Positions 10,401 through 42,400 of a DNA stretch of 64,000 bases are shown piece by piece. The stretch is taken from assembly GCA_964016885.1 (NCBI GenBank), contig OZ024741.1, positions 283,898,001 to 283,962,000 of the forward strand, read 5' to 3'. Every line of letters starts with the position of its first letter. Positions within the stretch are counted from its first letter, which is position 1. This DNA is from Eledone cirrhosa. Lineage: Eukaryota. The position numbers and the translations under genes are program-made. The notes beneath the pieces are model-generated. The model was not told where the DNA came from. It saw nothing but the letters and a program-made list of their open reading frames with translations, and made no database searches.

Positions 10401-13400
10401 GACTATTAAACAATACCAAGGTGAAATTCCAACATCTTTCTAATCCTTATTTTTAACATTTAATGTCTCGCATACATTACTGTAGTCTTCTATTTAACAA
10501 GAAATATTTAGTACCAACACCCCACTAACTTTATACTAAAATAGCTAGTACAACCTGTAAAGTGGTTGGTGAAAGGAAGGGCATCTATTTATAGAAAACC
10601 TGCCATACAAAGGGTCAGAAGCATTCTTAAGCTGTGGTATAGATATGACAACTTCCCTAGTGTTTGTGCTCTGATAAAATGCAACTTCCAAGAATGTAGG
10701 TTTGTATGTCAGGTTCTTGGAGCATATGGAGGTCAAAAGCTGCACATGATTACTGACAAGTTTGTGGCAACATGTCTTAGCCATGCTAGCAGGGAAAATA
10801 TTTGATATATGATGATAATGATAATGATGACAATGAAAACTAATTGAGTTAAGAGACGGAGGATACCCATTGTGGTTTTCTTGCAACATTGTGTAAGGTT
10901 CAATATAGACAAACTCAACTCAACATTTCTTTTCAAAAATATATACAACCATAGTTTAGATCAGAACGTTGCTTAGACCAGAACATAGCTTATATCAGAA
11001 CATAGTTTGGAACACATATACCATGTGGTACATTCACCATTTTCTATATTGTAAAAGAAAAACACCATTTTCAGATTCAAAAATGGCAGCACAAGAATGT
11101 CATGAGATATCCTGCTCTGAATTAGTTTCATCAATTTGTCTTTTGATGAAGAAATTTTACCCTGAAATATTGAAGACTATTAAACAAATCCATAGTAACA
11201 TTCCAACAACTTAAGTCACGTGCTTCATGTGTCTAAACAATACAGTGAAATTAAACAAAATACTACCCACAATGCCCTGCGTTATGCTAATATAGCTACT
11301 AACAGAAAAAGGAAAGTGACATTGGCAATACTCACCTTGTTCATACATTTCACTTCTTGATGTAACTGAAAAATATAATAATAATTGTTTCTACTTTAGG
11401 CACAAGGCCAGCAATTACCCAGTGCATTACTGGTACTTTATTTTATCGACCCCGTAAGGATGAAAGGCAAAGTCAACCTCGGCGGGATTTGAACTCAGAT
11501 CGTAAAGGGACGTAACTATGCTGGAAAGCATGGCGTCCGACCCTCTACCCATACTGCCAATCCACCGCCCGGTGGAATAATAATGATAATAATGGTTTCT
11601 GATTTAGGCACAAAACCAGCAATTATTGTGGGAGAGAAAGTCGATTAAATCAACCCTAGTGCTTTACTGGTACTTTAATTTATTGACCCTGTAAGGATGA
11701 AAGGCAAAGCTAACCATGGTCCATGAAATCCAGGTCTTTCGGCCTTGATTTTCCTGACCACAAGCTCCCCCGACAAGCTCTGTTGGCAGTCTTTTTAATT
11801 CAAAATCAACTGCCAGTAGGAACAACAGGGTGATTAGATTAGTGCTAACATAATGTAGTGAACCAAAAAGTTTTAATTAATTAAAAATTAAATACCTCAC
11901 AAATAAACAATAATAATAATCTTCAAAATAAACTCTTGTCAAGAAAGGCAAGAGAGACAACTGAGGTATTTCAATTAATTAAGATTAAAGAAAAATAGAA
12001 TGAATTAGGGGGAGTTGGTATCATCTAACCTTTGGTAGTGTAGTGACAATTCAGGACATGTTTGTGTATTGTAAGATCTCTTCAGTCAGATGTTAAGAAA
12101 AAGAAAAGAAACATATATATTACTTTACTCTTTAACTTACCTCTGTCAATAGACTGCAGCCTTGCTAAAGCATTGCCTTGACTTTGTCAATCATATCTAC
12201 CTCAGTGCATATTTTTCAACACAGATATTATTTTATGGATCTTTCTTTTGTTAACCCCACTAAGTTACAGAACATAAACACAGACACACAATGGGAATAC
12301 AGCCCCCCCCCCACACACACGTATGACAGGCTTCTGTGGTTTCAATCTACTAAATTCTACTTAGAAGACATTGGTCAACACAAGGCTATAATAGAAGATA
12401 CTTGTCCTAGGGCCCATGCAGCAGGATTGAACCCAGAGACAACTGATTGCCAAAAAAACCCTTACCATTTAACCATGTCTGCTATTTAAAAAAACACTGA
12501 AGATATTTAATTGTGGGGTTAGCATCACCACTTGACAGAGTGTACAGGGTGCACTTTATCATGGTACCATCATTAAATAGGTTATTATATGCTCAGTCAG
12601 ATCCTACCTGTTAAAACTGAAACAGAGGTCAAAGGGAAAAGGAGAATCTATTATCCTCTCAATGTGACATTAATAAGACTCAATAAAACATAACTGACTA
12701 CATCCTTTTTGTTCTGGTCAGTATAAAGATCTCTGTTGTCCTCAGTCTGTGTTCCTTTTTGTGCTGATCACTATCAAGACATCCACTGTCATGGTCCCTG
12801 TACTGCTATTTAAATAAAAGTGGGGTGAGTGCATCCCACCTAAGAAAGGGGCCCCATAAGGTGGTGTGGCTATTACAGTGAGTGACACTGGCTGTTCTCT
12901 GTAAGAATATCTTTAATATTTTGTCTACAGGGAACAGCTGAGATATGCAACAAAGACAGATGTGTAGAGTCTGCTAATCCCTTCTCCTTTTACTTTCTTT
13001 CACTGTTAGACCACAACCAACACTACACTACTTTCATATTAAAACAGCTAGTAGAATCTGTAAAGAGGTTTGTGAAAAGAAGGGAATCTAGTTGTGGAAA
13101 CCCTGCCAAACAAAGGGTCAGGAGAGTTCTTAGGCTGGTATAGACATGGCAACTTCCCTATTGTTTATGCCTTGATAAGATGCACTGCCTAGAATGTGGG
13201 TTTGTATGATGGGCTCATGGACCACATGGAGGTCAAAAGCTCCTAATGAGTACTGACAAGTCTGTGACAACATGTCCAATCCTTGCTGGCAGGAAAAAAT
13301 AGTTGTTAAATAATGATGATGATGACAGCTAGTTTAGTCAAGATAAAGAAGATACCCATAATAACTGAATATCAAACACCAACATTAGAAGAATTAAAAT

Positions 13401-15446
13401 ATGATTTTACAAGACAATAATATAACACCACTATTTAGCTCCAAACACTGGTTTAGATCTAAACATAGCTTAACTCAGAATATAACTTAGATCTGAGCAT
13501 AGCTCAGAACATAGCTTAGACCAGAACATAGCTTAGATCAGAACATAGCTCAGATCAGAACATAGCTCAGATCAGAACATAGCTCAGATCAGAACATAGC
13601 TCAGATCAGAACATAGCTCAGATCAGAACATAGCTCAGATCAGAACATAGCTTAGATCATAGCATAGCTTAGAACACATATACCATGTGATTCATTCACC
13701 ACATCCTCTATTGTAAAAAAACACCACTTTCAGATTCAAATATGGCAGCACAAGAATGACACAAGATATCATATTACTAATTAGTTTTTCTTTTGATGAA
13801 GGGAATTTATCCTGAAATATGAAGGAAGGACACTTAAACAACTCAAAGGTGACATTTCAACATTGTTCTAATCATTATTTTTAACATACTTTACTGTAGC
13901 CTTCTAATAAAATACATTCTTTTCTTCTTTTTTGTTTTAGTCAGTACATTAAAAACATTTAAAATAAGTCACATGTTCCATTCTAGTCAACACATGAGTA
14001 TAAACAATATAGCAAAATTTTACAAATACTAATCACAATCCCCTGCAATTAAACTAATGCAGCTACTAACAGAGAAAAGAAAACTACAGAAAATTACTCA
14101 CCTTGTTCATACGTTTCTGGCCTAGGTGTAACTGAGGATAACTTAACTGAAAAATATAATAATAATAATAAATAAGATGCACCAGTTGAAAGCAGATGTG
14201 GATCGCCTTTACCTTTCTAGAACTCAAAGAGGCCATGGTCTGATCCAATTTGAACTTACCTACATGACCACTATTGGACTGGCCAAATACCTTGAAACAA
14301 CTGGATGGTGAAAAACATGAGAGAATTAAGAAGCTTCATTCTATCTTGAAGGAGAGCAAAAAAATGCTACCAATCTCATGATTGATATTCAGGTTGGACA
14401 GTCTAAGGGAACTGTTGCAACAATACTGAAGGAACAAGAAAAACAAAGAAGAAGAAGAAGAAAAGTGACATGGAGTGAGACCCAGGAATACTTGGGATGA
14501 GGTGATTAAAGCTAACCTTGCTCAATTGCACCTCACAAAGATGATAACACAGGGCCAAGATCATCATCATTATCATCATCATTTTACGTCCGCTCTTCCC
14601 TGCTTGCAAGGGTGGGACGGGAACTGATTCTGGCTTGATTTCTACAGCTGGATGCCCTTCCTAACACCAACCTCATTTACAGTGAGTGCTGGGTGCTTTT
14701 TTGCCTTGGCACCTCCACGTCCACTTTGCAGTAGAATGATAGGGACCCTAGTCCCTATCATTTCATTTCTACAGCTGAGTAAACTGGAGCAATATGAAAT
14801 AAAGTGTCTTGTTCAAGGAAACAACACATCACCCGGTCTGAGAATTGAACTCACAACCTTTCGATTGCAAGGCCAATGCTCTAACCACTAAGCCATGTGC
14901 CTCTCTGGTGTTAAACAGTAATACAGAATATCTGACTTCCCAAGGACTGAAGCATACATATAATATGCACCAGCCTCACCTCAACCCCACCCACTCTTCC
15001 ATGCACCTCCCATGGGGACAGGCTGAAGCATACATCTAGTAAAGCCCCCAGCCCACACTATAAAGTGGTCATGATGGCAACACGAAAAAAAGCATCCAGC
15101 TCACACTGTAAAGTGGTCGTGATGGTGACATGACAAAAAGCCCACACTGTAAAAGGGTTATGTAGGTGTCACAACAAGCCAAAATCAGTTCAGTATGAGC
15201 AAGACAAGGTCATCTGATCTGGCATTTCTCACAACAGGACAACTCATCTATCCCATTCTAGCATGTAAAAATGGACATTAAATGGTGATGCTATATATAT
15301 ATATGTACGTCAATACTCATCTTTTTCCATTTATTTGAGGGTACTAAACCCCATTATCAGGCTAAAATTCCTTTAGTCAAAAATACGGTGAAAGCTATAT
15401 ATTTTCTAATTTCAAACCTGCTCACTGTTTCAAAACATACTTACTT

Positions 15447-15647: not shown

Positions 15648-18600
15648 TATTCATAATATATGTATGTGTGTGACTATGTCCATGTTTGTATATGTTTGTA
15701 TCCTGTAAGAAAACAGTTAATCAGATAGAAAAAGTTTTAAAAATTGAAAAAGTAAGTATTACAGTCAATATTATCTACTAAATCAAGATGGTACTTCAAA
15801 GGATCAAACACTAAATGGATGAAAGCAACAGATATCTACTTACACAGTGAAAGATTTTCTCCATGCAGACTTATTGTACATTGGTTGTCATTGCTTATCA
15901 TTTTTGCAAAGTTTCCCACAATTTGTGTATAACATTTGACATCTTTACCATTTGAGACAAACGAGGCACACTGCTCTAGTGATGTGTTAAATCCAATTTG
16001 AACATCTGTTGAAAAAAGTAATATCAAATGATGTTGATAAAAACAATGGGTGTTATTGTGAGGTAGTGGTAACAGAGAGAGAGAGGGGAGGTGCTATTGT
16101 GAGGTAGTGATAACAGAGAAAAGAAGAGAGATCCCTTAAAGCATCACTCCCAACACTTAATAATTCTGCCAATCTGTCATCTTGAACTGGTAATTTATTT
16201 TATCAGCCATGAAATCATGAAAGTCAAAGTTGACCTTGGAGGGATTTGAACTCAGAGCACAGAGAGCCAGAACAAATACCACAAGATCTTCTGTCTGATG
16301 TTATAATGACTCCACCAATTCATAGAATATTGTATATTTATCAAGAGACATGATTTCCTCCTCACACATACTTTTTACACTTTAACCATTTCATTACCAT
16401 ATTTCTTATGAAAGACATTGACTATGGTATTGAAATAATTTTGAAACTAATCAATTATTTGGATAGAATTGGTAATATAACTTTTTCATTATTAGCTGGT
16501 ATTTTGGAACATAACTTAGCAAAGGTGGAAGTGGAAGCTTTTAGATAAACACTTTAAAGTAAAGTTTTGTATCATAAGAACAGGGGGCAGTTTTAGAAAG
16601 TTTGGTTAAGAAAAAGTTAGTAAATATGCCAAAACAAACAGTTATTGATAAACTAAAGAAAAACGTACCAATGGTTTTCCCCAAACAATCAGCTGAAGGA
16701 CGAACAGAAATCACCCGAGTGACGTTATCAAGTTCATACACTGAAAGAAAGGAAGACAGGCCGGTGATTAGTTTTATGATAACATAATTAATGTAGTGAA
16801 TCAAGTTAATTAATTAATTTAAAATTAAATATCTCATAGATAAACAATAATAAATGTCTTAACAATAAACTCTGATCAAAACAGGCAAAGGAGACAACTC
16901 TGGCATTTCAATTAAAACTATAGAATAATAGAATACAGTACGGTGCGTAGCATTATCTAATCTTTGGTAGTGTAGAGACAATTCAGCAAGCATGACCTAA
17001 CAAGTTTTTAAGATGAAAGAAAGAAGCATATATATTCTTTTACTCTTTTACTTATCTCCATCAGTAGACTGGACTCATGCTACAGCACTGCCTTGATTTA
17101 GTCAATCATAGCAACCCAATACATATTTTTCAAGACTGATATTATTTATGTATCTCTCATTTGTCAACCCTGCTAAGTTACAAAGTAGTACACAGGCCAA
17201 CACAATGTAAACACACACACACACACATACACAAACACGTATGACAGGCTTCTATAGCTTTTGTCTACTAAATTCCACTTACAAGGCATCGTTCAACACA
17301 AGTCCATGCAGCAAGATTGAATCTAGAATCAACTGCTTGCAAAGCAAACTCTTTAACTACTGAACCATGTTTGCACCTATATACATATTTGGTATAATAT
17401 ATGTTAGTTAAACAACCAGTAATAGTGTATGTAGGACAGAGCATTTGACTATATATGCAAGTATGACTGTGTACTCCAGAGTATAAGTATAATAATTGTT
17501 TCTACTTTAGGCACAAGGCCAGCAATTATCCAGTGCATTACTGGTACTTTATTTTATCGACCCCGTAAGGATGAAAGGCAAAGTCAACCTCGGCGGGATT
17601 TGAACTCAGACCGTAAAGGGACGTAACTATGCTGGAAAGCATGGCGTCTGACTCTCTACCGATACTGCCAATCCAAAGTGTAAGTCAACAGGTTAGAATT
17701 TACTTCATCTATTCGTTATACAATCACTGTTATACATATTTTAATGATAACTGTTATGCAACAGCCATGATCTCAGACAGCTAAGTGAACAGTTACATGA
17801 ATATGATGACATGAATAAAAATAAAAATTACTCATGCTGAGTACTTCGAGCTGTAGCAGGTTCAAGTCATGATGGAAAAATTTTATATCCTTACATCACT
17901 AAAAGATATTCCACTACATGGAAAATTAGAGTACACCAAACTTCTCATTACAAAAAACAGACCTGCTCATCCAAAATATACAGTAGAAGGCGTTCCATTT
18001 CGATAGAAGAACATCTGATGTTAAGTACAATACAAACTCACACAATTTGGAGAACTTGTTCAAATCAAGAATGAAGAGGAAGATTAGATACAAGTTCTTG
18101 TACTCCACTATGCACAACTTAACCTTGCACATAGCTAGCATCAACAATAATAGGCTAAGGACCTTTAGACACATGCCAACTAGCTCTAGGGTGAACCAAT
18201 TTATTCCAGGTGGGGTTGCTAAGCCAGCAAACTCTGACAACCTTGGGGACTCTCTGAAAATTCCTTAGACATCCCACAGGTGATACACTGGTGTTGACCA
18301 GATTATGCAACTGCAGAAAACTTGACTCATGTTTGCTTGGGAATAAATGCCTGGTGAAAAATCTAGTTTACCAGTGCGAGTTCACTGCCTCCAACACGGC
18401 ATCTAAATACATAGAAGCTACATCAACTAGCATCAAAGACAGGTGGTACAATCACCATCACTCTTTTAATAGGATCAATAAATGAAAAAGCCCAACCCTT
18501 CAGAACTGATCTGGAAGCTTAAGTCAAATAAAACCCCATCCTCTTTAGTTTGGTCCAAGGTGATGAAGGTACCCCCAGACAGGAGTGGCTCAGATATTTG

Positions 18601-21600
18601 CAGCCTCTGTCTAAGTGGAACCCTTGAGATACTCAGAGGGGGACCACAAATATTTAACAGAAGAGCTGACTCCTTTGGTGTTTGTCTACATCTGTGGGCG
18701 AGAACTTTGCTCAAGCTATATAGTTAGTAACCCTACCTCAATGGGTTCTAGTTGGACCCCCACCTCCTGTTTCTATCTCTATTTATCTCTAATTACTTTC
18801 TGGGACCACCCTAGGCTCTTAGTAAGACTCACACCTTGTCTCCCTACATTAGTTATTAACATTTACTTGTAGATGCTGATTTATGATTAATTAGCCACTC
18901 AAGCACCACTTGAGACTTCCCCCTCATGCAATCCAACACCTATTCTGCATATGCTATGTGAGTTTCCACAATAAGGTACTGTTTGACCTACTATGAGGAC
19001 TAGTTAGCTATAAATTCCCCACTTCCCCTTAGGAAACAATCCCATACTTCATGATTGCAGCAGAATCTTTGGCTGACAAATATCTCTGCGCATATTTGAT
19101 CACTAAATTTTCCTTCTTACTACCTACATTTTATTTTCATTAGCTAATAATACTAAGAACACCCTTCTTCTCCCAGCCTGTACAAATTTTATATGGTGTT
19201 ATATATTAGCATATTTTATATCTCTGTATGACTATCAATTTTGTGATATACATTAGGCATTAGCATAGTCTGATCTTGGTACTTTTAGCATATCTTACCT
19301 TTTTGTTTTTTGTTTCTGTTCCTGTACTTTTACTTTTCCCCTTGTGGTCTATTCCTTATTTATTTAATGGTAATCAATCTATCTTCAACCTTAATTTTAT
19401 TTTATCTTATTTTATTTCTATATGTCAACCTTGATTCTCACTTATGCCTGCTCCCTATATGTATATTATACTATATACTGGCTAGTATGGTTATATTATC
19501 ATTACTGCCACCATTTCTATAGTCATTGATACTGAGCACCACTATCTCCTATTTAACTGAGGTGTCAGAGATACAACCTTGACTGTCATTATTGTTGCTG
19601 TAGACAACTCTATCACCCCCACCACAGCATTCTAAGGTTGACCATCATGTTACCCACTACAGCTAAAGCATCTGAAAATGACTTGATTCCTTTACAAGTA
19701 GACTGCCATCTAGGACCATGGCACCACTAGGGAACTCAGAATCGCTGGGAGGATAGTTAGGAGTCTTGTGTTGATATTCTAAGGTTGTATTCTAAATCAT
19801 GTGTCATCTGTGTTTTGAATGAGCAACATCAGTAATTAACCCATGACATATCAATGAATTGAAACAGAATGAGTAATTTATATTTTTTCTTCATGTCATC
19901 ATATTTTTATACATGTAACTTTCTGTTTAACTAATAGCTATCTGATGAGGTTGTAACTGCTGCATAACAGTTATCATTGAAATACAGTGATTGTGTAATG
20001 AATAAATGAGGTAAATTCTAACCTGTTGACTTCTAATTATACAAAATACTACACACAATGCCCTGCTAATACAAATACCAACAGAGAAAAGTAAACTACA
20101 AAGCATTACTCACCTCGTACATGTATTACTTTCAATGGTCTAATTCTGGATAATTTATCTGAAAATTACAATAATAATAATAATAATAATAACAACAACA
20201 ACACCCTCATTTTCTACAGTCTCATTTGCCTGATCTATTCCGCTTTTCCTTTCCAGCTCAATTTCTCTACTCAGTTCCTCCAATTCCAATTCATTTATCC
20301 ATCCATTAGTTCTTATTACACAAGCCTGACCCATTAGGTTTTTTTCACCTAATTTAAATAGCCCAATATCGTCCCAGATTTTATGCATTCGTTTCCTATA
20401 GCCTTTCTTAGTGGGATCACTTTTCAGATAACATTTCATTAGTTTTATTCAATTCCATCATCCAGTTGGTTCTTGCCTCATTCCTTCTTCTTCCTCCAAC
20501 ACCAGCAGTATTTAGATGACAGCCAATCCCTATTGCTGGGCCATGGAGCACTTGCAGGGTGGGACTTCTTCACATGAAGTTCTAGCCTCCTTTACACCAT
20601 TATTTGAACTATTTAGGTTCAACATTTAATATCTAAGGAGTGACACCATTCCATATCTAAGGAGTGACACCACCCATGTATTGATAACTTTCATCTTATT
20701 CTGTCTATTCAGATTCGATGTATTCAGTCTGTACATGTATTCCACCTTAAATTTTTCTTTCATTTCCTCCTGCATTATCTTAACTTCCAATATCCCTAAG
20801 TACTTATAACCTTCCCTGATGGCAACATCAACCCCTCAATGCTTTTCATTTTGCCTCTGTTCAAGATTAACACACCACACTTTTTTAATCTGAATCCCAT
20901 TCTGATGTCAGCACTAAATGTATACACCATATCAACGAGGGAACCAAGCTGGGATTCATTCTTACCATAAAGCTTGAGGTCGTCCGTGAATAATAAGTGG
21001 TTGATTTTTTGCTGGCGACCTTTGTATTCACACTCAGCTTTAGCTTTTCTCAAAATCATCGTCAGTGGTATTATGCACAGTACAAACATCAGTGGTGACA
21101 GGCTGTCCCCTTGGAATATACCTCTCTTGATTTCAATTGTTCCTAGATTTCTTCCATATGTTGTCAGTTCAGTCTTCCACTCTTTCATACTTTTCATTAA
21201 GAATCCCTCAACATTTGATGCAATACCAAATGAATTAATGCATTCCATAATCCAAGAGTGTGGAATCATACCATAGGCTTTGCAGTAATCAATCCCCGCC
21301 ATGGTCGAGTTGGTTTTCTTCCTTTTGCTATCTTTAAGTATTGTTTTATCTATCAAAAACTGGTCCTTGGTACCTCTGCACTTATGCTTGCACTCTTTCT
21401 GCTCATCTGGTAGAACTCCATTTTCTTTAAGATGCCCATACATTGATTCTGCAATTATTCCACTCAATAAATTCCATGTAAGTGGTAGGAATGTTATTGA
21501 TCTGTAGTTGTCTACGACATTCCCTTTAGTGATATCTTTTAAGCACAAAATTGTCCTGCCTTTTGTCAGTCACTTCTGTATCATTTGATCAGCATTTAGC

Positions 21601-24600
21601 AATGTGTTGAGTGATGTCGTCCGCATATGCCGACACATCCTTGTTTGAGCGGGATGCCCTGCAACAGTTTCAGCTTTCGCAGTAAAGGCTCAAGAGTCAA
21701 TACATATAGGAGGGAGGAGAGAGGGCACACTTGAAAGACCAATTGCACAATCTGAAATGGTTCCAAAAGGTGGCCATTTACTTTGACCACAGAGCAGTTG
21801 CCACTCTGCATTGCAGCAATCCAGCCTCTGAAGACTGGACAGAAGCCAGCTGTCTTGAGAACAGCCTCCATATATCAATGGTCAACCCCATTGAAAGTTT
21901 TTGATTGATTTAAATTGATCAGAGCCCACCAAAACCAGTTTTAAACCCTACTCTCTATGATGTATCCCATGTTGCTGTGTATGGACCTGGTTGGGATTGT
22001 GCAAGTTTGTGCCTCCCCTACCAGACCCTCAACGACAAGTACCAACCTCTTGCCAGCCCCAACATTCAAACATCCTACTCATAAGATGTCCATGTTGGCT
22101 AATTGACTGAGTTCAGCCTCCATTTCTGATTGGTGAGGTTCCCATGGGAACCCTTTTAAAAACCTACTCTTGGCATTTACACTAGGGGTCCTCACATCGT
22201 AGGGGGAGCTCTCCCTAATGTTCTTGCATGTTTCTAGTGGCATCTGTACTGTACAATCAAAAGTGTTTGGGGCACTTTGAAGGTGCAGCTGCTGCAAACC
22301 TACCCCTGCTCCTCAATATCTTGGCTTCTCTCTTGCTGTGAGAACCATTAGTTCTTTGTTGCTCTTTCTCAGCAACACAAAGTTGTATGTTTCTGTTTTT
22401 GTCTGTGGTTGTGTATGTTATATTTTTGCAGTTGTATTGGTGGTTGTATTGCGTGTCTGTCTTTGCTGTGGGTATCTTTTGTGTACTTGTTGGTGAGAGT
22501 GAAGATGTTTTTTTTTCTTTTGTGTGTGATTTCGTTTTTGTTTTTTGGGGTTTGTGAGGTTCCCCCTCATCTTCACTTGGGGATGAGGAGGAACTAGTGT
22601 CTGGGGACTCTGAGTCAGAGGGGAGTGAATGTATTTATGGGTGTGTGAATGTTGGTCTATGTGTGTGTTTGAAAGAGGAGAGGGACAGCTTGTTTGGGCG
22701 ACTTCCTGGGTGGTTTTAGTGTTCTTTTTGGTGTTGTTACTGCTGCTGCCATTGCTGGTGGTGTTATCTCTTCTACTGTTGCTGCTGCCGGTGTTGGTGT
22801 TATTGTTTGTCTCTGCACCGGAGTTGACAATAACAGAGGTTTGTGGCCCCCTGCAGTTTTCAGATGGAAGCAAAAGGTTCACAGGTGAATGACTTCACCA
22901 CAAATGAAACAGTGCAACCATTTGCCCTCCGTGATCACTTGTATTTCCTACCTATTTGGTAGTTTGATGTTATACAGGATATTTTTAATGAATTTTGGGT
23001 CTGATTTGGCCCATCTTGCAGGGGACCACTGAATGCTTGATAGCAAGAGCCTCAGTTTTGAGGAGCACCAAGATGCTCCCAAATTGTTTGGTTCTCGATA
23101 TATAGACTATGTGTCGTTAATTATGCACTTCAGTGCAGCCTCTACTTGTCATTGGGAGGCTATCACAGCTTTGCGCAATTGCACCGAAATGCATCTATAT
23201 TTTAAATTTCTCCTCTCCATTGCTGCCATCACTTCTTCAGGAACATTTAAGTTGGCCCTGATTTTTTCTGTGATGATGATTTTTCTGTCTGGGTCAAAAC
23301 ATTCTTTCTTTTAAGTCATGTCAAAGCTGTATAAAGTTTGAGCTTTTACAGCTGTGGCTGCAAAAGTAATCTTGTTCACGTTGTTGTTGCTGCTGTTAGA
23401 GTTGATGTTGTTGTTGTTGTTGTTCGTGGTGTTGTCATTGTTGGAGTTATTGCTGCTGTTGTAGCTGTCATTGCTTCTATCACTCTTGTCATTGCTGCTG
23501 CTGTTTCTGATGCCATCATTGCCACTTCTGCTCCTTTTGCTGGCGATGGTGGCATTGTTGGTGTGTCTCTTCAGAGCGACGTCTGAATCACGTTCGTGAT
23601 GCATGCTTTTTTCGAGAATTTTCCCATTGGCCGGATTTGGAAGGGGTGTAACCTACATTTTTTTTTACAAAAAGTTTTATAGCAGAATTTCAAATATTAT
23701 GGGGAATCCCTTCTTCAGGGCAAAGACTGAAGACTTATGCTCCTTTTGTAACAAACTTTATAAGCAAAAAAAAACAATATAAATAGAAGTACACAAACAA
23801 AACGTATGGAGTGTAAACAGCTGTGGCATATCATTCAGTGACAAACAATAATAATGGTAATAATTGTTTCTGATTTAGGCACAAGGCCAATAATTTTTTT
23901 TGGGGGGGGGTTGTTGTTGATTAAATCAACCCCAGTGCATTACTTGTGCTTTATTTATTGACTCCGTAAGGATGAAAGGCAAAGCTAACCCCAGCAGGAT
24001 TTGAACTCAGAAAGTAAAGGGCCAGAATACATACAGCTATACAGTTTAACAACTCTGTCAATCCACTTCTGAGAGTCACTGAAGAGGAAGCCCATAAAAA
24101 ATCCACAGTCACCCTGACCACGAGGGAAAATGCCCTCTTCCAGCTGTCCTCTTCCTATCTACATATGTATACTCAGATACTAAATGACTCCAATTCTATT
24201 GTAATTGAACTCTTCCATGATTAAACCTCATTTGCTGTTGATGTCAAATTAGTTTTACACACTATTTTCTATTTAGTAAGTACATAAAACAGTTAAAATA
24301 AATCACGTTTCATTCTGGTCAACACATGAGTTTAAGCAATACAGCAAAATTATACAAAATACTACCCATACTGGCCCGTATACTAACACAGCTAACAACA
24401 GGTAAAGATAAATGATATGACAATACTCACCTCTTTCATATGTTTCATTTGGAGATATACCTGAGGATAAATTAACTGAAAATATATAATAATAATAATG
24501 ATTATAATAGTAATAATAATTGTTTCTATTTTAGGCACAAGGCCAGCAATTTGAAAGGGGGGGGGGGGGTTGATTAAATCGACCCCAGTATTTACTGGTG

Positions 24601-27600
24601 GTTCATTTTATTGACCCCGTAAGGATGAAAGGCAAAGCTAACCTCAGTCGGATTTGAAATCAGAATTCTATGCCACAAAGCATATTGTCCAATGCTTTGC
24701 TGATACTACCAAAACAGCACACTACTACTACTAATAATAATAATGGTTTCTTTATTAGCCACAAAGGGCTGACATGAAGAAAACATTAGCGACAGCACAG
24801 GATGATGCAGTGGTTTTTTTTTTTAGTGTAAAGAAGATAATAGAAGCAATAAACAATTCCAGCAATAGAAAATCCTCCAATGAGGAGGAGACGTCCAAGG
24901 AAGCCACTATACTCGGAGAAAGTAAGTGCCCTCTGATTTATATGCATACTCCTTTGATGAAAGGAGTTTAGCCTGAAACATTAAGGACTATTAAGAAAGT
25001 AACATTCCAACATATTTCTAATCATTATTTTTAGGTGGATTGGCAGTATCGGTAGAGGGTCGGACGCCATGCTTTCCAGCATAGTTACGTCCCTTTACGA
25101 TCTGAGTTCAAATCCCGCCGAGGTTGACTTTGCCTTTCATCTTTACGGGGTCGATAAAATAAAGTACCAGTAATGCACTGGGTAATTGCTGGCCTTGTGC
25201 CTAAAGTAGAAACAATTATTTTTAACATTTACTTTCCCACTTTTATTGCCATAACTTTCTAATAATACACACTATTTTCGTTTTAAGTACATAACATGCA
25301 GTTAAAATATGTTATGTTCTTCATTCTCGTCTACACATGACTAAGTAATGCAACAAAATTATACGAAATACTACCCACAATGCCCTGCATTTATGCTAAC
25401 ACAGCAACCAACAGAAAAAGGAAAACTACATGGCAACACTCACCTTGTTCTTTCACTTCATTTTTAGCTGTAATTGAGGCTAAATGAACTGAAAAATATT
25501 GTGATAAGAATAATATTATTATTATTTCTTTATTATTGGTCACAAGGGCCAAACATAGAGGACAATACAAAGTCATGGGTTTACATGCAATTGAGTAAAA
25601 AAATTAACAAAACAATTTACAAAAGATATCAACAATAGAATTCCCCAATAGGGAGGGAGGATACCACCCAGGGTTGACATTAGGAAACCCACAAATGCCA
25701 ACCCACCCTCATCTCCAAGAGCACCCTAGGAGTGCGCTCCTCTCTCCCTCCATCTTTCCAGCCTACAGGCGCAGTCTCAGAGTGGGCCCATTCACACGGG
25801 CCATTCTCACAACAATCACCCACCTTTTAAAAAATGTTCTGGGGCAACATTTCTCTCTCCACTCTCATCTTCCTTTCCAAGTGGAACTGGAAAAAGTTGA
25901 TGAGGGCTTGGCCAAAGAGGAAAGTGTCACATCCACCACACAACCTCTTTCCCTACAGCTATCAGAGAGAGGAAAACTGCCTGCTCTTCCCAGTCAAAAG
26001 AAAGGGGCAAGGCGATCTTCACAATGGACTCAGTCAATAGCCAGATCTGTCCCACATACAATAACAGTTGTTCAACATAACTCCATATGTCAGCAGTACA
26101 CAGTTTCATTGCTCTGCTCGCATGTCGGACAGCTTCCTCTTGGCCCATTTCTGGGTGAGAGTGACTAAATAAAGAAAGGAGACCTTAAGAAAGCTACAGA
26201 GGGAATGCTACTGGCTGCACAGGAGCAAACCATAAGAACAAAGTAGATGAAACTTCATATTTACAAGGAGGTAGTTAGCCCTACCTGTAGAATCTATGGA
26301 AAGAGTGTGGAAATTGTGGCTCACATCGTATCCAAGTGTAAATACCTAGCCAAGATGTATTATAAAAGATGGCAACATAATACATAAGAAAAAAGTGATC
26401 TACTGGCATTTATGCTAACTGAATAATTTACCCTACTCTGAGAAATGGTATGAGCATATGCCAGAGTTGGTGATAGAAAACGATCAGTTGAAGGTGCTGT
26501 CAGATTTCAGAATACAAACAGATAAAGAACCTGGTGGTTGATGACAAGGAAAAAAGATCTTGCTTTATTATAAATGTAGCTTGCCCCTTTAACACAAGAG
26601 TGCAAGAAAAGGAAAGGGAGAAAATTAACTGGTACTAGGATCGAAAGTGGGAACTGAAAAGGATTTGTGACTGTCATGAGATGAATGTCATCCCCATTGT
26701 CATAGTAACACTAGATACTGTCTCAAAGAGTTTCCAAGATTGGCTAAAGAACATTAGCTCAGCCCCTTTTTATGGAATACTTCAAGTGGCATGCCTACTG
26801 GGAACAGCAAGGATCTTCTGATACATCCTGAATATCTGAGGCTGCAGATAATGGCTTGATGTTCATTTGGACAACTTTTCTGGTTAAATAACATCAATGA
26901 CTGAGATATCAAACTCAAAATAATAATAAAAATGATAATAATTTCTTTATTGTCCACAAGGGCTGACTTATAGGGAACAATCGAAACCAGGGATAGTGGG
27001 GGCTTTCAAAAAAAAAAAATCAAGTAAAAAAGTATAACAATAAATTACCATTGACTGACCAATACACAAATATGACCCCCCCACCCAGTATAACAATATT
27101 TGTTTCGACACGATTTCATATCAATAAACAGAAAAAATGAATGGAATAACAACAACACCCAAACAAACAACACTGACCAAAGAGAAGTATAAATAAATAA
27201 ATAAATACATACACAAGCACAATAACAACAAACAAATATAAACACACACTAGTAAACTAAGATAGAATACAATAACCAATACACAGTCACCCAAATACGA
27301 ACACACATCAAACAAAACACTATACACACATGCAAACGCATACGAAGAGAAGACAAACAAATAAATAAATAAATAAATAAATAAATAAAGAGACTAAATA
27401 AAGATGGCGTAGGCATACAATACAACGGGAGGAAACATAATAGTACCACTGACGATGTTGCAGATGTGCAACGAAAGAACTTTGTTAGACTATATATATG
27501 TGTTTGTGTCTATATTGTATCTGTATTTTTTACCGTTGGTCAGTCAATGGTAACATTGAGGACCGAATAAATTAAATTAACCGATATAAAAGACACAGAA

Positions 27601-32400: not shown

Positions 32401-32840
32401 GAAATGGATGGTTACCAACCCAATCCTCAATGAATTGGACCTTCCATTTCTGTGCATTGATGGATGGGCTGATACCTTGTGTATTGAGTAAAAATGTGGA
32501 GGCTAGTATGGTGGCTGGTTTTGACTGTTGCAGGGTGCTTGTTTTGTGATTGTGTGTTAGTGACAGCAAGGTTGGTGTTGGGTGATGGCTAAAATGTTTT
32601 CTCTATCTCTTTTGCCAGGTTCATGGCTAAAAAAGAAACATTTTCTTGTTCAGGGAGCAGTTTTTGATTGGATTTGTGGTTACACCATTGGATAGGGTTG
32701 CAGTTACCTCTTTTGCTGTTGTTGTTGTTGTAATCGTGTATTTGTGAAAAGACTGGAGCAGCATTACTTTTGTTGTTGTTGTTGTAATTGTGTCATTGTG
32801 AAAAGACTGGAGCAGCATTACATTTGTATCTATATATATT

Positions 32841-32872
<32 letters not shown>

Positions 32873-33410
32873 TAGATACATATATATATATATAGATGTA
32901 AATATATCTATATATATATATATATAAATGGAATAGAATGAAACGAAATTTCATTTCTCACTCTTAGTACGGCACTTACTTAAATGTAAGTATGTATACG
33001 TACATACATATATGTATACAGGCGTACAGTAGCATGTATATATATATATATATACAGGCACACATATATATATGCACGTATCAGTTTACCGAACATTTAT
33101 TATAATGTTCGCTTTGTTCGTTTGTAAACAAACGAACAGCCTGATTTACGCCGTACAGTGTTTAGGCAACCATGTCACCTTTTTGTTCAACACTGACACA
33201 GGAACGATGTACTAGTTTCAAGCTTGTTAGCTATCGTCAGCACCGTATACCTTTCTGCCAGATGGTTGAACGTTCGAAAGTATATACTTTCCTTATGAAA
33301 ATTAACGGCTGAGCAGCCTAATTTGCGGTAAACTGATACGTGCATATATATATGTGTGCCTGTATGTATATATATATATATACATACATGCTACTGTACG
33401 TCTGTATACA

Positions 33411-33449
<39 letters not shown>

Positions 33450-36400
33450 CTATGTGCCTCCATCCATGTATACGTACATACATATATGTATACAGGCGTA
33501 CAGTAGCATATATATATATATATATGCTACTGTACGCCTGTATACATATATGTATGTACGTATACATGAATGGAGGCACATGGCTTAGTGGTTAGAGCAT
33601 TGGCCTTGCAATCGAAAGGTTGTGAGTTCAATTCTCAGACCGGGTGATGTGTTGTTTCCTTGAGCAAGAGACTTTATTTCACATTGCTCCAGTTTACTCA
33701 GCTGTAGAAATGAGATGCAGTGGAATGATAGGGACTAGGGTCCCTATCATTCCACTGCAAAGTGGTCGTGTAGGTGCCACGGCAAAAAAGCACCCAGCAC
33801 TCACTGTAAATGAGGTTGGTGTTAGGAAGGGCATCCAGCTGTAGAAACCAAGCCAGAATCAGTTACTGTCCCACCCTTGCACGCAGGGAAAAAGCGGACG
33901 TAAAATGAAATGATGATGAAATGATGATATATAGATATATAGATATAGATATATAAATGTAATCTGAGATTTTCGAATATTAATAATAACATTCGATTTG
34001 TTTGCAATTATACAAACAAGCCTCATTTTTATAGCCATGTCAGTAGAATGAACCCATCATTCTTGCTCTTGTGTTGGCATGTAAACAGAACTGCAGACAC
34101 TAATGTTTCTGGGTATCACCCTTCATCAGTACAGCTCACTGTTCACCTGCCAACTGTCAGAGCTAGTGAAAATATATGCTATTTTCTAAAATATACAGTG
34201 GTTTGTTCACGAACTCCTTCTAAGGTTTTGAAGATAGACCCTCATCATCATCATCATTTTACGTCCGCTTTTCCCTGCTTGCAAGGGTGGGACAGGAATT
34301 GATTCTAGCACCAACCCTTCCTAACACCAACCTCATTTACAGTGAGTGCTGGGTGCTTTTTTCCGTGGTGCCTACACGTCCCCTTTAGAGTGGAATGATA
34401 GGGAACCCAGTCCTATCATCTCATTTCTAGAGCTGAGTAAACTGGAGCAATGTGAAATAAAGTGTCTTGCTCAAGGAAACAACACACCACCCGGTCTGAG
34501 AATTGAACTCATAACCTTTCGATTGCAAGGCCAATTCTCTAACCACTAAGCCATGTGCCTCCATAACCATATATATTCTGAAACTACTTTGCCCAGGGTA
34601 TTTGGATATTTCATTTTAACCAAAGAGTTCCCTGGGGGCACAACCCCCCCCCCCCCTCAAAATGTTTTCCCTTCGTTTTATATGAAATTTAAACCATATG
34701 TAAATGACAAGAAATTCACAAAATTTCAGCAAATTTCAATAATATTAAAACACACTAATGGAGTTTTTCTCCATAAATTATATCACTGATTTAAAATCAA
34801 TCATCAAAGCGTGGGTTCAGCTAGGATATATATATATAGAGAGAGAGAGGGGGGGGGGTGCCTTTGCCCATGTTTTTATTCTGTAACAAAGCAGTTAGAC
34901 AAAAAGAAATTGATAACTGGAAAAAAAAAAGTTCTAAATCAAGGTGACACCATTACATGGCTGTACTCTATCAAAAACAGTAAACATATCACAGCAATAA
35001 ATGATACTCACCCACAGAAAGATCTTCTCCAAACAGGCTTATTGTACATTGGCTGTCATTACTTAAGATTTTGGCCATGTTTCCCTTAATGGGTGAATGA
35101 CATTTGACATAATTATGTTTATTTGAGATAAATGAGGCACACTCCTGCAGTGATTCTTGATATCCTATTTGAACATCTGTTGAAAAAAGTATTGAATGAT
35201 ATTGATGAAAACAGTGGCTGTTATTGTTAGTGTTGTGGTAATAGAGAGACAAGAGGTGTTATTGTTAATGCTGTGGTAACAGATAGAGAGGATGTTATTG
35301 TGAGGTAGTGGAGGGGAAATGGTAATATAATTAATATTCTCTTTGTTAGCTGGTGTTTGGAACATAACTTAAAGGTTTATACATACAATCATAATGGAAG
35401 CTTTTAGATTAATTAAAACACTTTAAAGTAGAATTTGTATCATAAAACCAGAGGCAGTTTTAAGCAGTTTGGTTAAGTAAGGGTTAAGTAAATATACCAA
35501 AACAAACAAATATTTAATGAACAAGATAAAAACTTACCAATGAAGTTCCCAAAACAATCATCTGAAGGACGGATAAATTTCACACGAAAGAAGTCATGAA
35601 GTTCTATCACTTAAAGAAGGGAAGAGAAATTGGTGATTTATTTAATGCTAACATAATTAATATTGTGAATCAAGCAGTTTTAATTAATTAAGAATTAACC
35701 ACCTTGTAAATGAAACAATAATAATAGGCTTCACAATAAACTCTGGTCAAGACAGGCAAGGAAGACAACTCTGGTATTTCCATTATTTAAATTAAGGGAA
35801 AATAGAATGCATTAGGGAGTTGGTATTATCTAACCTTTGGTAATGTAGTAACAATTCAGGACATGTTTGTGTATTGTCAGACCACTTCAGCAAAACATGG
35901 TCTAACTGGGGTTGCAGGATATTAAGAAAAAGGAAAGAAACATATTTTTTTCATTCTCTAACACATTTTAGTCAATAAACTGCAACCATGTTGTATCACT
36001 TTTGACAACCTGCTAAGTCATGGAACATAAACAGAGACAGACACAAATGTAAACAGACAGACACACACACATATATATATATATACTTCTACTATTTGGA
36101 CCTGGGATTCAACCCAATCACCCATGAATTACTTTGAATTACTGGACTTTTTGTACTGCTCTTATATATATATATGAATATATATATATGTATATATAAG
36201 GATTAAAATACTGGAGCGTGTTGGAGTTAAACACCCTCTTCGTATTATAGAAATGACAGTAAAAGGTATAGCTCAATGCAGTTAAACAGAGCCGAAAAAT
36301 TAAGAGAGTAAATATGTATATATATATATATAAATATGTATATATATATATGTGTATGTATATATGGGTATGTATATATGTGTATGTATATATGTGTATA

Positions 36401-39400
36401 TATGTATGCATGTATGTATGTCAAATAAAAAAAAAAAAACGAGTTAAAACTTGCATTAATCCCCTGTGATTTAATGAGAAGAATAGAAACCGGGCTCTTT
36501 ACAAGACAGTATATATAGAAAAAAAACACAAAGAGCTTTTTGTTGAATTATAAGGGACAGAATACCACCAGAGTGAAAAACAAAGTCTACTAACTAATTC
36601 ATTTCTTTATGTAAGTAGAGCTTCTTGAATTGAATGGTTCTGGCGGTCTTTTGGTCCATTCACCCCACTATGGACTGTGTAGCACACGTGTTTTCTTCTC
36701 TTTACACTATGTGCGTTATTTTAGTTATCTGAAATAATTTTTGAAGTGAGGACCGTACTGTTATACACCTGTTGATAAGCCCTTAGTAGTATGGGATCTT
36801 CACTTTTTAAGGTGAAACATTCTCTTATTAGAGTTTGTCCAGGTGTTTATAGTTATAAAAGGTTGGTTTGTACATTTTAATTTATTCTTTTAATTGATAT
36901 GTATTTTCCATTCCTTTCGTAGACTTTATGTTTTTCACTCTGGTGGTATTCTATCCCCTATAATTCAACACATACCTCTTTGTGTTTTTTATATATATAC
37001 TGTCTTGTATATATATGTATCATAAAGAAACACTGAGTGTATTTTATTGTAACACCAACACTACCTCTTTACAGAGTGTCCTGGGTGTATATTATCATGG
37101 TACCAGTTATAGAGAGGTTGTCATATACTCAGGAGAAAAGGATAATTTATTCTCCTCCTAATATGAGAGTAACAAGAGGAAAAGAAAACTTCACAGAGAA
37201 ATTCTTTTTGTGCTGATTACCATCAAGGCTTCTGCTGCAATCGATCCCTGCTCTGCTATTTAACAGTAAGAAATTAAGAGGAGAATATCCCACCTAAGAA
37301 AGAAGCACCGTGACGTGAAGTGGATGATGCATTAGATGACACTGGTTCATCATCATCATCATCATCATCATTTCATTTTACGTCTGCTTTTCCCTGCTTG
37401 CCAGGGTGGGACGGGAACAGATTCTGGCTTGATTTTTACAGCTGGATGCCCTTCCTAACACCAACCTCATTTACAGTGAGTGCTGGGTGCTTTTTTGCCG
37501 TGGCACCTCCACGACCACTTTGCAGTGGAATGATATGGACCCCAGTCCCTATCATCTCATTTCTACAGCTGAGGAAACTGGAGCAATGTGAAATAAAGTG
37601 TCTTGCTCAAGGAAACAACACATCACCTGGTCTGAGAATTGAACTCACAACCTTTCGATTGCAAGGCCAATGCTCTAACCACTAAGCCATGTGCCTCCAT
37701 TGGCCTCCATGTGCCTCCACTGGTTGTTCTCTGTAAAAATACCTTTAGTGTTTTGATTACAGGGAGCCTTTAATGCCCCACACACATTGCTGTAGCCATC
37801 TAATAATACACCCTATTTTCTAATTAAAACATTTAAATTAAGTCACATGATTCATTCTGGACAAAACAATGCAACAAAACTATACAAAATACTACCCACA
37901 ATGCCCTGCAATTATACCAACACAGCAACTAACAAATAAAGGAAAATGATATGGCAATACTTACCTTGTACATGCATTTCTTTCATAGGTGTAATGGAGA
38001 ATAAATTAACTAAAAAAAATGATAATTTCTATATTAGGCACCAGAGCTGACATGTAGAGGGACAATAAAAAAGACAGGGACTGTGGGGGTTTTACAGAAA
38101 AATCGAATAAACAATTATAACAATACAAATTCCTCAATAGTGGGGGAGAACCACCCAGAGGCGACTAAGGAACCTCACCAATCCTGAATCACTTGACGCT
38201 CCAAGAGCACCCAAGGAGAGCGCCCCTTTCCTCTGCAAATCAGCCAGCCTAAAAAGGAAGGACTATACTGGAAAACTATTGAGGGATAGGAAATATACGA
38301 AGTGCAAATAGAACAAGAAAGGATCAATAAAATAGTAAAGTATTACATGGATAATTTGAATAGGAAATGAAAGCTATAAAAAATAATTGTTTCTACTTTA
38401 GGCACAAGGCCAGCAATTACCCAGTACATTACTGGTACTTTATTTTATCGACCCCGTAAGGATGAAAGGCAAAGTCAACCTCGGTGGGATTTGAACTCAA
38501 AGCTATAAAAAATAATGAGTCTCAGAACTGGTTGAGTAAGTGGAATCTAAAATGAGAGACAGAATTAGGGCTATTCAAAAACAAACCCTGAGCAAAAGAA
38601 ATATTTATAGAATGGAAGTGTTTAACAGGTGTAGATTGTGTGGAAAGCACATTGAGAATGTTTTGCATATAGTTGGAGGATGAAGTATGTTGGCCCAGAA
38701 AGAATATAAAAGAAGGCAAGACAAAATCTGACTTAACCTCCATTGGTTACCCTGCAGGAAGTATGGCATGGAAACTACTGACGAATGATGTAACATACAC
38801 CAGTAGCAGTTATTGAAAATATTGTGGGATGTATGTATATAAGTAGACAGAGAACTCACACATCGAAGGCATAGTTGTGGTTGAGAAAATAACAAGTAAC
38901 TGCTAAGTTATTGATGTGGCATGCTCAGTTGATAACAATTCAAAATTAAAGCAAGTTCAACAGACAATTATGCAAGTTGAATGTGGAGAAAGATTAAAGG
39001 AACACTTGGATCAATACCAAAAGAAATTCACAGCTATTTGAAAATGCTTGGTTTTGTGTATGAAATAAATACATTCCAGCACTCAGTGCTTATAAGTACT
39101 GTTGAAATCCCCTGATAAGTACTATCAATTAAGTAATGAACAAAGATCAGAAGTTCTCCTTATTGTAAAATTTCAATAGCCTGAAAAGGTTTAATAAAAT
39201 CTTAATGCCAGGAAATTCAATTTACAAAAAATGATAATAATAATTTCTTTTATTGACCACATGGGCCTGAGACATTGGGGACAATCCAAGGACAGGGGCA
39301 ACACAACAAAACACAAAGTGTGGTTTAATATCAAGTAAAGGAAAAAGGACATCACTGAATTGAAAGCAATAGGAATAACAATAATAAAAATTGTAATAAA

Positions 39401-42400
39401 TATAAATAAAAAAGAAAATAATAAAGAAAACAATAATGAATGTCATTAAGGACAATTTCCTTAAGGCAACATTCCAACATCTTTCTAATAATTGTTTCTA
39501 CTTTAGGCACAAGGCCAGCAATTACCCAGTGCATTACTGGTACTTTATTTTATCGACCCCGTAAGGATGAAAGGCAAAGTCAACTTCAGCGGGATTTGAA
39601 CTCAGATCGTAAAGGGACGTAACTATGCTGGAAAGCATGGCGTCCGACCCTCTACCAATACTGCCAATCCACCAAATGTTTTAACATTTAATGTCCTATT
39701 AGCATTGCTGTAGCCTTCTAATTTTCTAATTTTTTTTTTTTTTAGTAAGTCCATGAAACATAAAATGTGTCACATGATTAATTCTGGTCCACAAATGTGA
39801 CTAAGTAATACAACAATAATTTTCATTATTATTATTCATTATTATTATAATGAAGGGCGGTGGATTGGCAGTATCGGTAGAGGGTCGGACGCCATGCTTT
39901 CCAGCATAGTTACGTCCCTTTACGATCTGAGTTCAAATCCTGCCAAGGTTGACTTTGCCTTTCATCCTTACAGGGTCGATGAAATAAAGTACCAGTAATG
40001 CACTGGGTAATTGCTGGCCTTGTGCCTAAAGTAGAAACAATTATTTGTACCTAGAATTGTGAAGCACTGAAAGTAATATTATTTTTCATCTTGTACAATG
40101 CTTACTGCAGAGTAAACAACAAAATTATACAAAATGCTAACTTCAATACCCTGTATTTATGCTAACAGAGCTACCAACAGAGAAAAGAAAACTACACAGC
40201 ATTACTCACATTGTTCATAAATTTCTGTTCTAGGTGTAATTCTGGATGATTTATCTGAAAATTAAATGATGATAATAATTGTTTTGTGATTTAGACACAA
40301 GTCTAACAATTCTGGGGAAGGGAAAAGTCTATTAAATTGACCCCAGTGTGTTACTGGGTACTTTATTTTATCAACCCCGTAAAGATAAAAGACAAAGTTA
40401 ACCTTGGCAGGATTTTTATTCAGATCATAAAGGGATATATCTATAAGTTGTAAAGCATATTGTCCGATGCTCTAACAATACTGCCAGGAAACCAGTTGCT
40501 GCCTCCTGTATTTTGCAAGTTGTTATTAGATTTTTGCAGCACTACACATCCACTACCAAAAGATGTGGCAGGACTTTAGATAGGTGTTAAAGACCATCCT
40601 ATGATCCAGCGCATTACTCGTCCTAAACAGCCTAGTGAGTGGCACTGAAAAGCCACATGCGCCTGTTTGCAACTGAGTAACTCGTGTCTGTCTTAATCAG
40701 CCAGACCAAATTGTGACTTTGTTGTCACATTGCACCTCCACCACTCAAGCCCATTTGACAGTTTTGGTCCTTTTGTGTCTTAGAGCAACCACCATATCTC
40801 TGACAATGCAGCCTTCATATTTAACTTTGTAGAATTTTTTAAGTGCCAATCTCAATGTGTGCATGTTAGCCATAATACTTTTCCTAAATCCTTTTTCTAG
40901 TGTCCTGACTAGCTCTCCCTCTTATCTAGTTTTCTCTATCACTATTACTTTACTAAGCCCTATCAATTTTACTCTAGTTGCTCAGTCCATAGTGAATCAT
41001 CATGTTCACAATAGTTTGTTGTTAAATTAGTTTTCTCAATTTTTTCATTTGATGAGATTTTATCCCAAAATATTAAGGGAGGAATGTTACATGAGAGTAT
41101 GCACAGTTCTGATCTCAGAACTAAATGCTCATAACAAGGTTTTTAGCCATAAATTCCTTGGCAGTTCCAGTTGTTGCTTATAGCTTCGGTGTTGAACTGG
41201 AATATGAGTGAAATTTTAAAAAAAAATCGACACCAAAATCTGTAAGTTACTGACTTGTAATAGGATGCACCACCCAGAATTCTTTCCTTCCTAGAATTCA
41301 AGGAGGCCGTGGTCTAATGCAATTTTAACTTACCTACTAGACCACAACTATTGGATTGGCCAAATACCTTGAAACAACAAATGACATTATGCTGAAACTT
41401 GTTGAAAAACATGAGAGAAGTAAGAAATTTCATTCTATTTTGAAGGAGAGCAAAAAATATGCTACTGATCTCATGCTTGATAGCCAGGTTGGCCAGACTA
41501 AGGAAACTGTTGCAACTGATGCTGCTTAGCATATAAAATTAAAGGCAAAAGCAAAAGGGCAAGAACAATTAGCATCAAAGTGGGAGCAGAAACCTCTACA
41601 TGGCAAATATGAGGCCCATAGCAAACAAGTTGATGTTGACCAGAAGCACACCCATCAGTGGCTACGTAGCTCACGGCTAAAAGCAGAGAGTGAAGGCTTC
41701 ATCTTAGCTGCCCAAGATCAAAGCTTACTAACATGGAATTACCAGGCCAATGTGATAAGAAACGGAATAAATCCAAAGTGCCAATTCTGCAATGTTGAGG
41801 TTGAAACAATGGATCACTTAGTCTCTGGATGTAAAGTTTAGCCCCAGTATAGTACAAATATGGACATGACAGAGTTGGCCAATATCTACACTGGGTAATA
41901 TGTCAGCTTTATAAAATCAAATCTGCTGACAAGTGGTACAATCATCACCATGAGGCTGTAACTGAAGGAGAAAAAGTAACAATTCTTTGGGACTTGTACA
42001 TAATGACCGGACGATAAAAGCTAATAGACCAGATATCATTGTAAAAGACCAACATAGCAAGGTCTGTTTACTGATTGATATGAGCATCCCATGTGATCAC
42101 AATATCGTGGCAAACGAGTTTGACAAGCCAAGAAAATATAAAGATCTGCTAATTAGAAATTGAAAAAATGTGGCACCTCAAGGCGGTTACAATACCAGTG
42201 ATTGTGGTAGCACGAGGAATGATCAAGAAAGTAACAGAACAGTATTTGAGGTTTACCTTCCCTGCAACAAGTGCAAAAAATTGTTTTGACTGGTACTGCA
42301 CACGTATTGAGAAGAGCACTATCTTTTTAAGAATGATATACCTCCATGCATGTGTGTGTGTGCATAGATATATTTTATTTATATGTATATATGTGTATGG

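Follow-up and report, generated by a model that had tools for sequence, protein, structure and literature searches.

Clustered microexons in a predicted cell-surface protein gene of Eledone cirrhosa: probable remnants of lost repeat modules, likely spliced in series

The 64,000-nucleotide (nt) stretch of the Eledone cirrhosa genome analysed here (contig OZ024741.1, positions 283,898,001 to 283,962,000; the window) carries on its minus strand a gene in which a module of two exons, C (72 nt) and B (162 or 165 nt), recurs, and in which successive modules are linked by microexons, here called A, that mostly measure 45 nt. Between one B and the next C there are 2, 3, 2, 1 and 1 A exons. Are the members of a cluster alternatives, of which each transcript takes one, as in Dscam, or are they joined one after another? 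A preliminary description favoured the first answer, a choice yielding 2 x 3 x 2 = 12 isoforms, with a chained linker of variable length as its fallback. The fallback is judged the better reading: the clustered A exons are probably orphans of lost C-B units, spliced in series as a spacer within a ninefold-repeated, predicted cell-surface protein. The argument starts from what is read directly at the locus, namely an exon map with an open frame, hybrid introns, clusters whose members are not sisters, and the joins of B4 to A7 and of A8 to C4. If the series is correct, the locus is a clear case of a repeat ectodomain that alters its spacers by domain loss while keeping the domains' first exon; if exclusive choice were true, a mollusc would have a diversifier resembling Dscam, observed as it arises.

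Reality and splicing of the A exons

An ab initio scan of the whole window for AG, 45 nt and GT, with a pyrimidine tract and a donor consensus, returned nine sites, all on the minus strand. Eight are A exons (A9, A8, A7, A6, A5, A4, A2 and A1), and the ninth is an internal acceptor within the signal exon. The B and C exons were mapped by self-search of the window; scan and self-search together confirm the exon order first described, and the translations of the scanned exons agree with the seven A peptides quoted then. All seven clustered A exons have phase 1/1 and six are 45 nt long, while A3 measures 30 nt, its first 15 nt having been deleted at a short direct repeat. The constancy claimed for these exons thus holds for phase and for strong splice sites (donors GT(G/A)AGT in 12 of 12 A copies of the genome region), but not for the length of A3. 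A6 and A4 also contain an internal acceptor 15 nt in (24460 and 14131), whose use would give a 30-nt form resembling A3.

All 30 A, B and C exons have an open frame and are in phase 1/1, every length difference is a multiple of 3, and no junction stop arises in 435 forward exon pairs; the exon set is therefore not due to chance. Joined in series, the 30 exons give 876 codons without a stop. DNA contigs from runs X1, X2 and X4 are continuous over A7, A6 and C3, which shows that the exon arrangement in that part was not created by the assembly. A search of the 3.0-Gb genome found nine B and nine C copies, all at the locus, and A copies nowhere else; no additional A copy was found in the 120 kb below the window or the 80 kb above it. 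Overall, the A exons are real, paralogous, and under selection for frame and splice sites. A further candidate exon of 41 nt (14300-14260) was discarded, as it sits in what we take to be a piece of a Tigger-like transposon.

Splicing is seen in run X3, which is not registered as RNA and was judged to be RNA because its cover is limited to exons and breaks exactly at splice sites. Over 34900-36250, its cover is confined to parts of B4, C4 and one 31-nt repeat (among the 8 of 10 records listed). In particular, one contig (208 nt, depth 2.8) follows the genome up to the B4 donor, 35012, and departs from it precisely there, 30 of its loose letters being identical to A7 positions 1-30; in another (180 nt, depth 2.5), the match to the genome begins at the C4 acceptor, preceded by loose letters of which 30 equal A8 positions 13-42. 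Both loose ends were compared with the 12 A copies. From these exact breakpoints, the gene is transcribed and spliced, with use of A7 and A8 as a minimum. The junction check proposed in the preliminary description thereby yields two joins, B4-A7 and A8-C4, each from one X3 contig. Both are joins between nearest neighbours, A7 being the A that follows B4 directly and A8 the one that directly precedes C4, and have a probability of 1 in series and of 1/6 under an even choice of one A per cluster. Loose stretches of 70 letters after A7 and 97 before A8 lie beyond the compared parts. The break points predicted for a de Bruijn assembly fit the start of the B4 contig (36 nt in common with Bd4) and do not fit the far ends, and they do not separate the models. 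Over 15800-35600, SINE (short interspersed element) contigs dominate in the four runs, no splice join is present among the matches listed, and the depth bins cannot separate A5 from C3 cover.

The contig that enters C4 does so at the 72-nt boundary of the exon. A 24-nt C exon was considered and rejected, as it needs an exonic AG that is absent from three of the four downstream copies. All five C exons in the window contain a cryptic in-frame acceptor (e.g. at 9021, 35561 and 47974) that would yield such an exon.

Could one fixed A serve each cluster (A8, A7, and A4 or A3), the others being silent, recently orphaned copies? A7 and A8 alone are seen spliced, A3 is 15 nt short, and the longest branches of the tree belong to A5 and A9. 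However, all clustered copies keep a consensus donor, an acceptor and an open frame, whereas for a neutral copy the probability of retaining AG, GT and frame over the full divergence time is 0.37, or 0.018 for four spares, a weaker argument if the orphaning was recent. Such fixed usage is highly improbable.

Origin of the clusters

The introns inside the clusters carry the marks of missing exons. Positions 1-2273 of the 2736-nt A4-A3 intron match ordinary A-to-C introns, the match ending about 22 nt before the C acceptor, and a profile of the C flank (positions 3-120) matches 11920-11810 at E 1.5e-17 with no exon behind it. Because this intron is of the A-to-C type and stops before the missing C, the extra A exons look like remnants of modules that lost C and B. 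The A9-A8 intron is a hybrid, with a start (1-531) of the A-to-C type and an end (1959-2199) of the B-to-A type, and the A7-A6 and A6-A5 introns retain 494 and 168 nt, respectively, of an A-to-C start.

Moreover, cluster members are mostly not each other's closest relatives. In a tree of the 12 A exons with their flanks, a single clade is rejected for A7/A6/A5 (approximately unbiased test, p-AU 0.009) and for A4/A3 (p-AU 0.002), and A3 is sister to the downstream single exon Ad2 (support 97/95). A cluster of alternatives would be expected to come from local duplication of one exon, which fails in two of the three clusters; local duplication may be the source of A9/A8. The A5 exon is a mosaic, A9-like at 6 of 7 informative 5′ sites and A8-like at 6 of 6 3′ sites (Fisher p 0.005, with the breakpoint picked after inspection), which suggests conversion or crossover inside the 45-nt exon.

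These features fit the following route. The ancestral gene likely carried a single three-exon N-terminal unit, which would have been multiplied here by unequal crossing-over. A crossover or deletion spanning from an A-to-C intron to a B-to-A intron would remove C and B and leave an extra A, and we infer that the C-B losses came about by out-of-register crossing-over. Such losses would be frame-neutral, because every exon is in phase 1/1 and a multiple of 3, and the orphan A would keep its strong splice sites. The A adjoining C would encode the few residues that paralogues carry at the start of a longer C exon, while the upstream A exons would each add a 15-residue extension. Joined to one another, which is likely, the exons of a cluster would form a spacer of one to three short units.

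The C2-B2-A2 and C1-B1-A1 units (window 1231-10396) are a recent tandem duplication, 94-98% identical; C2 is nearest to C4, whereas B2 is nearest to Bd3. SINE ends lie less than 100 nt upstream of 5 of the 12 A acceptors (6312-6707, 11374-11715, 24511-24664 and 40342-40486) and are a possible crossover substrate. A 17-bp tandem repeat occupies 13453-13673 in the A4-A3 intron.

Choice, skipping and fast sequence change

If cluster members excluded one another, a mechanism would be expected. Those given in PMC5740500 are a donor-branch distance below 50 nt, a U2/U12 clash, a length not divisible by 3, and a docking duplex; docker/selector pairing of mutually exclusive exons is likewise treated in PMC6071210. 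No steric bar on joint inclusion was found, the A-A introns measuring 968-4272 nt, nor a frame bar, as A lengths divide by 3 and the exon pairs are free of junction stops; no U2/U12 clash was found among the 12 A copies, whose donors are all U2-type. A search for docker/selector pairing by 22 duplex tests near the exons gave z from -1.8 to +2.0, none below -2. With long introns, lengths divisible by 3 and U2-type donors, no mechanism on that list applies.

Strict choice of one A per cluster would produce 12 ectodomains differing in the fast-evolving start of three repeat domains. The exons share phase, near-equal length and strong sites, at least one A is present at each of the 8 inter-module junctions, the longer C′ exon of the paralogues begins with a stretch to which the end of A aligns, and such a choice could also produce the joins B4-A7 and A8-C4. 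But its likelihood under even choice is 1/6 of the in-series value, a basis in steric hindrance, frame, U12 splicing or docking sites was looked for and not found, the members are non-sister in two of three clusters, A3 is without one third of its exon, and the count is only seven exons in three clusters. Exclusive choice is therefore quite improbable, and the 12-isoform proposal finds no support so far, since both joins are between nearest neighbours, no exclusion mechanism was found, and the clusters look like remnants of C-B loss.

The divergence of the A peptides was also part of the preliminary description. The A exons do diverge widely: mean amino-acid identity is 38% among 10 A copies versus 62-64% for C and B, and pN and pS (nonsynonymous and synonymous differences) are 0.363 and 0.230 in A, with both near 0.2 in C and B. 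These tests exclude the near-identical twins A1, C1 and B1 and the exons of deviant length A3, Cd4 and B4. Omega (dN/dS) under a codon model is 2.95 (p 0.012) in A, 0.87 in C and 0.93 in B. The core of A differs more than the adjoining intron (0.333 versus 0.249; interval of the difference 0.007-0.164). The dN/dS check set out in the preliminary description thus finds an elevated value, but a fragile one, resting on 14 codons with recombination: without the hard-to-align copy Ad1 omega falls to 1.8-2.4 and significance is lost (p 0.085-0.19), and overall it spans about 1.8-4. Nor is it particular to clusters, with omega 2.3 in clustered and 2.8 in single-A copies, neither set being significant alone. 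Judged by sequence, A exons change fast whether clustered or single, which is no mark of alternative use and is consistent with diversifying selection on an exposed segment. Likewise, the youngest units do have a single A (A2 and A1), as first described, but so do three older, diverged junctions below the window.

A looser alternative combines inclusion in series with skipping of one or more A exons, aided by inverted SINE pairing, and would give mixed spacer lengths without strict exclusion. An antisense SINE at 25224-25036 and a copy at 17675-17491 show 97% complementarity over a length of 185 nt, and their pairing would loop out A6 and A5; for a second, at 40045-39861, the possible partners are upstream of A9 or, at a distance of 186 nt, a copy within the same intron. 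We take these elements to be of octopus type. Every skip keeps the frame, and the internal acceptors of A4 and A6 would add a 30-nt form. Against this, the X3 contigs cross the B4 donor and the C4 acceptor unbroken with no competing join assembled (at low depth), the A4/A3 cluster contains no antisense SINE, and the SINE enrichment (two of three) is post hoc, the third antisense copy being one that would loop out entire modules. Leaky skipping is unlikely, though it keeps some standing. Inverted pairs in two of three clusters would not enforce exclusion. A small Dscam-like switch gained by a mollusc receptor through a new route, in which C-B domain loss left rival fast-evolving first exons, recent inverted SINEs choose among them, and at least 12 ectodomain variants result, is quite improbable.

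Splicing in series, the reading preferred here, has its own difficulties. The A-to-A joins it calls for are not read: the loose ends are 115 and 139 letters long, of which 30 were compared in each, and the logic of contig ends leaves A7-A6 undistinguished from A7-C3, and A9-A8 from B5-A8. There is one contig per join, at a depth of 2.5-2.8, from a single run in a single study. Regarding origin, a single A9/A8 clade is not rejected (p-AU 0.12), local duplication also yields hybrid introns, and mosaic exons such as A5 blur the tree. Of the three antisense SINEs of the array, two are located in A-A introns (10.2 kb out of a total of 98.0 kb of intron), where they could cause looping-out of A9, or of A6 and A5. 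Finally, chaining would be costly if A were a core strand of the fold.

Gene architecture, paralogues and relation to known systems

The gene product is a predicted type I membrane protein of about 1,650 amino acids. The predicted order is a signal exon, nine C-B repeats linked by A exons, five PLAT-like modules, a Thr-rich stalk and a transmembrane end (Table 1). Below the window (L001-L012) the gene continues with four of the C-B modules, which have one A at each of the three junctions among them, and with the PLAT-like modules, stalk and transmembrane exon. The PLAT-like part consists of five two-exon modules in phase 1-0-1, and the last exon, preceded by the stalk, encodes a Cys-x-Cys motif, a hydrophobic helix and the stop. 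Up to the stalk the spliced frame runs for 1,539 codons without a stop; the last exon brings it to about 1,650. Hydropathy over 19 residues peaks at 1.63 at the N-terminus and 2.58 near the C-terminus and is at most 1.42 between, and because the peaks lie only at the two ends, a signal peptide and a single C-terminal transmembrane segment are predicted.

Table 1. Exons and related features of the gene within the window.
Feature	Position	Strand	Length	Remarks
Predicted first coding exon	63261..63344	-		ATG and signal-peptide-like stretch, phase-1 donor; signal exons of P and R2 at equivalent position; prediction without RNA cover
Candidate exon X	50589..50708	-	120 nt	phase 1/1; sits where three paralogues have one 66-105-nt exon before C
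C5	47951..48022	-	72 nt
B5	44058..44219	-	162 nt
A9	40210..40254	-	45 nt	splice-site scan
SINE, antisense to gene	39861..40045	+		within A9-A8 intron; able to pair with copies either side of A9
A8	37965..38009	-	45 nt	scan; joined to C4 in RNA-like contig
C4	35538..35609	-	72 nt	acceptor used in RNA-like contig
B4	35012..35176	-	165 nt	joined to A7 in RNA-like contig
A7	25444..25488	-	45 nt	scan and RNA-like contig
SINE, antisense to gene	25036..25224	+		within A7-A6 intron; 97% complementary to copy at 17489-17675
A6	24431..24475	-	45 nt	scan
A5	20114..20158	-	45 nt	scan; mosaic, 5′ half A9-like, 3′ half A8-like
C3	16669..16740	-	72 nt
B3	15844..16005	-	162 nt
A4	14102..14146	-	45 nt	scan
Scar	11810..11920	-		intron stretch normally preceding a C exon; no C or B behind
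A3	11336..11365	-	30 nt	first 15 nt gone, in frame
C2	8998..9069	-	72 nt
B2	8584..8745	-	162 nt
A2	6202..6246	-	45 nt	single; scan
C1	4592..4663	-	72 nt
B1	4207..4368	-	162 nt
A1	1447..1491	-	45 nt	single; scan

Three paralogues of the same plan, P, R1 and R2, lie on the same contig. P and R2 each have one X, one C′ and one B′, and R1 has one X and one C′; no B′-like exon was found in R1 before its first PLAT-like exon (L074:9475 to L075:2356). The ninefold array is peculiar to the present gene, because P and R2 carry a single N-terminal unit. A profile of the A-C-B unit matches R2 at E 8e-7 and P at E 8e-4 (two targets searched), and the stretch by which the paralogues' C′ exons (90-93 nt) are extended at their start corresponds in alignment to the end of A. 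Homology of X to A was not accepted: nhmmer gave no X-to-A match, and where the scores of three A copies out of 12 exceeded those of 193 or more of 200 shuffles, the alignments were out of register.

How does this locus compare with known systems? According to PMC3364881, Dscam-hv clusters 4, 6 and 9 comprise 12, 48 and 33 mutually exclusive alternatives encoding half or whole immunoglobulin (Ig) domains. Like Dscam-hv, the present gene encodes a single-pass surface protein (here predicted), in which repeated extracellular domains begin with tandem paralogous exons alike in length and phase; unlike it, the clusters hold 2, 3 and 2 exons of 10-15 codons without an Ig match, and in two of three the members do not form a local sister set. 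The likeness is limited to exon geometry, and the locus is not classed as Dscam type because the known supports of exclusion are absent. Tandem exon duplication is linked to exclusive choice in general in PMC9013439. Similarly, the A exons have the similarity, length and frame by which such candidates are nominated, but none of the mechanisms listed in PMC5740500; according to that paper, candidates nominated from sequence, even 29 of 158 annotated ones, can turn out to be constitutive or otherwise spliced.

The array has another parallel. Birth-and-death expansion of phase-1 exon modules occurs in repeat ectodomains, and the locus shares with it symmetric 1-1 exons, unequal crossing-over, 97-98% duplicates (C2-B2-A2 and C1-B1-A1) and mosaic exons. 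It differs in that partial loss has here probably left orphan microexons, still spliced, that change faster than the flanking intron. Further, the gene resembles PLAT/LH2-repeat proteins in its five phase 1-0-1 modules after the array, one of which passes the PF01477 cut-off (25.9 bits against 23; one of five first exons), while one paralogue exon falls just below it (22.5 bits). Unlike those proteins, four of the five first exons have no Pfam match, and the plan adds nine N-units, the stalk, Cys-x-Cys, one transmembrane segment and a short tail.

No relative of the overall architecture (N-unit x9, PLAT-like x5, stalk, transmembrane segment) was found in protein databases. Searches with the B exon, a B alignment and a PLAT exon found no homologue among longer proteins; HMMER over 1.84 billion representatives gave one chance ankyrin match only, no PDB match fell below E 0.35, and B′ had no usable match in the Atlas. 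By eye, B was presumed to resemble an F5/8 type C or fucolectin (FTP) beta-sandwich, and the Atlas gave B a weak lead to a cluster at rank 14 with a score of 0.88, of which 41% carries PF00754. This likeness found no support: none of four B exons and five paralogue C′/B′ exons matches PF00754, PF22633 or the genome's own FTP exons, hhalign gives a probability of 0.4%, within shuffles, the best E of another local comparison is 0.08, and the exon borders differ from those of the genome's own FTP-type exons. Modelled alone by AlphaFold, B is unusable (predicted local distance difference test score 40.6). The genome also contains eight exons matching PF22633 (L021-L028), with the look of FTP-type first exons, seven of them on one contig (labelled C2, as distinct from the exon) and several with a Cys-containing insert.

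No account of the gene family was found in the open-licence literature; the family is uncharacterised, with at least four predicted surface proteins without database relatives, and its description is useful rather than startling if the A exons are spliced in series. Its members combine a signal exon, one N-unit and about five PLAT-like modules, at loci L048:1030-930 to L060 (below the gene), L074-L079, L087-L098 and L019. The last, of which the final exon lies upstream, is a likely fourth paralogue, and the Cys-x-Cys juxtamembrane exon is present in P, R1 and L019. Intron 1 contains a degenerate coding piece of a long-terminal-repeat retrotransposon-like element (52900-54300), presumably with a zinc knuckle and a protease, and a 33-bp tandem repeat of 14.7 copies (63517-64000) lies 170 nt upstream of the signal exon.

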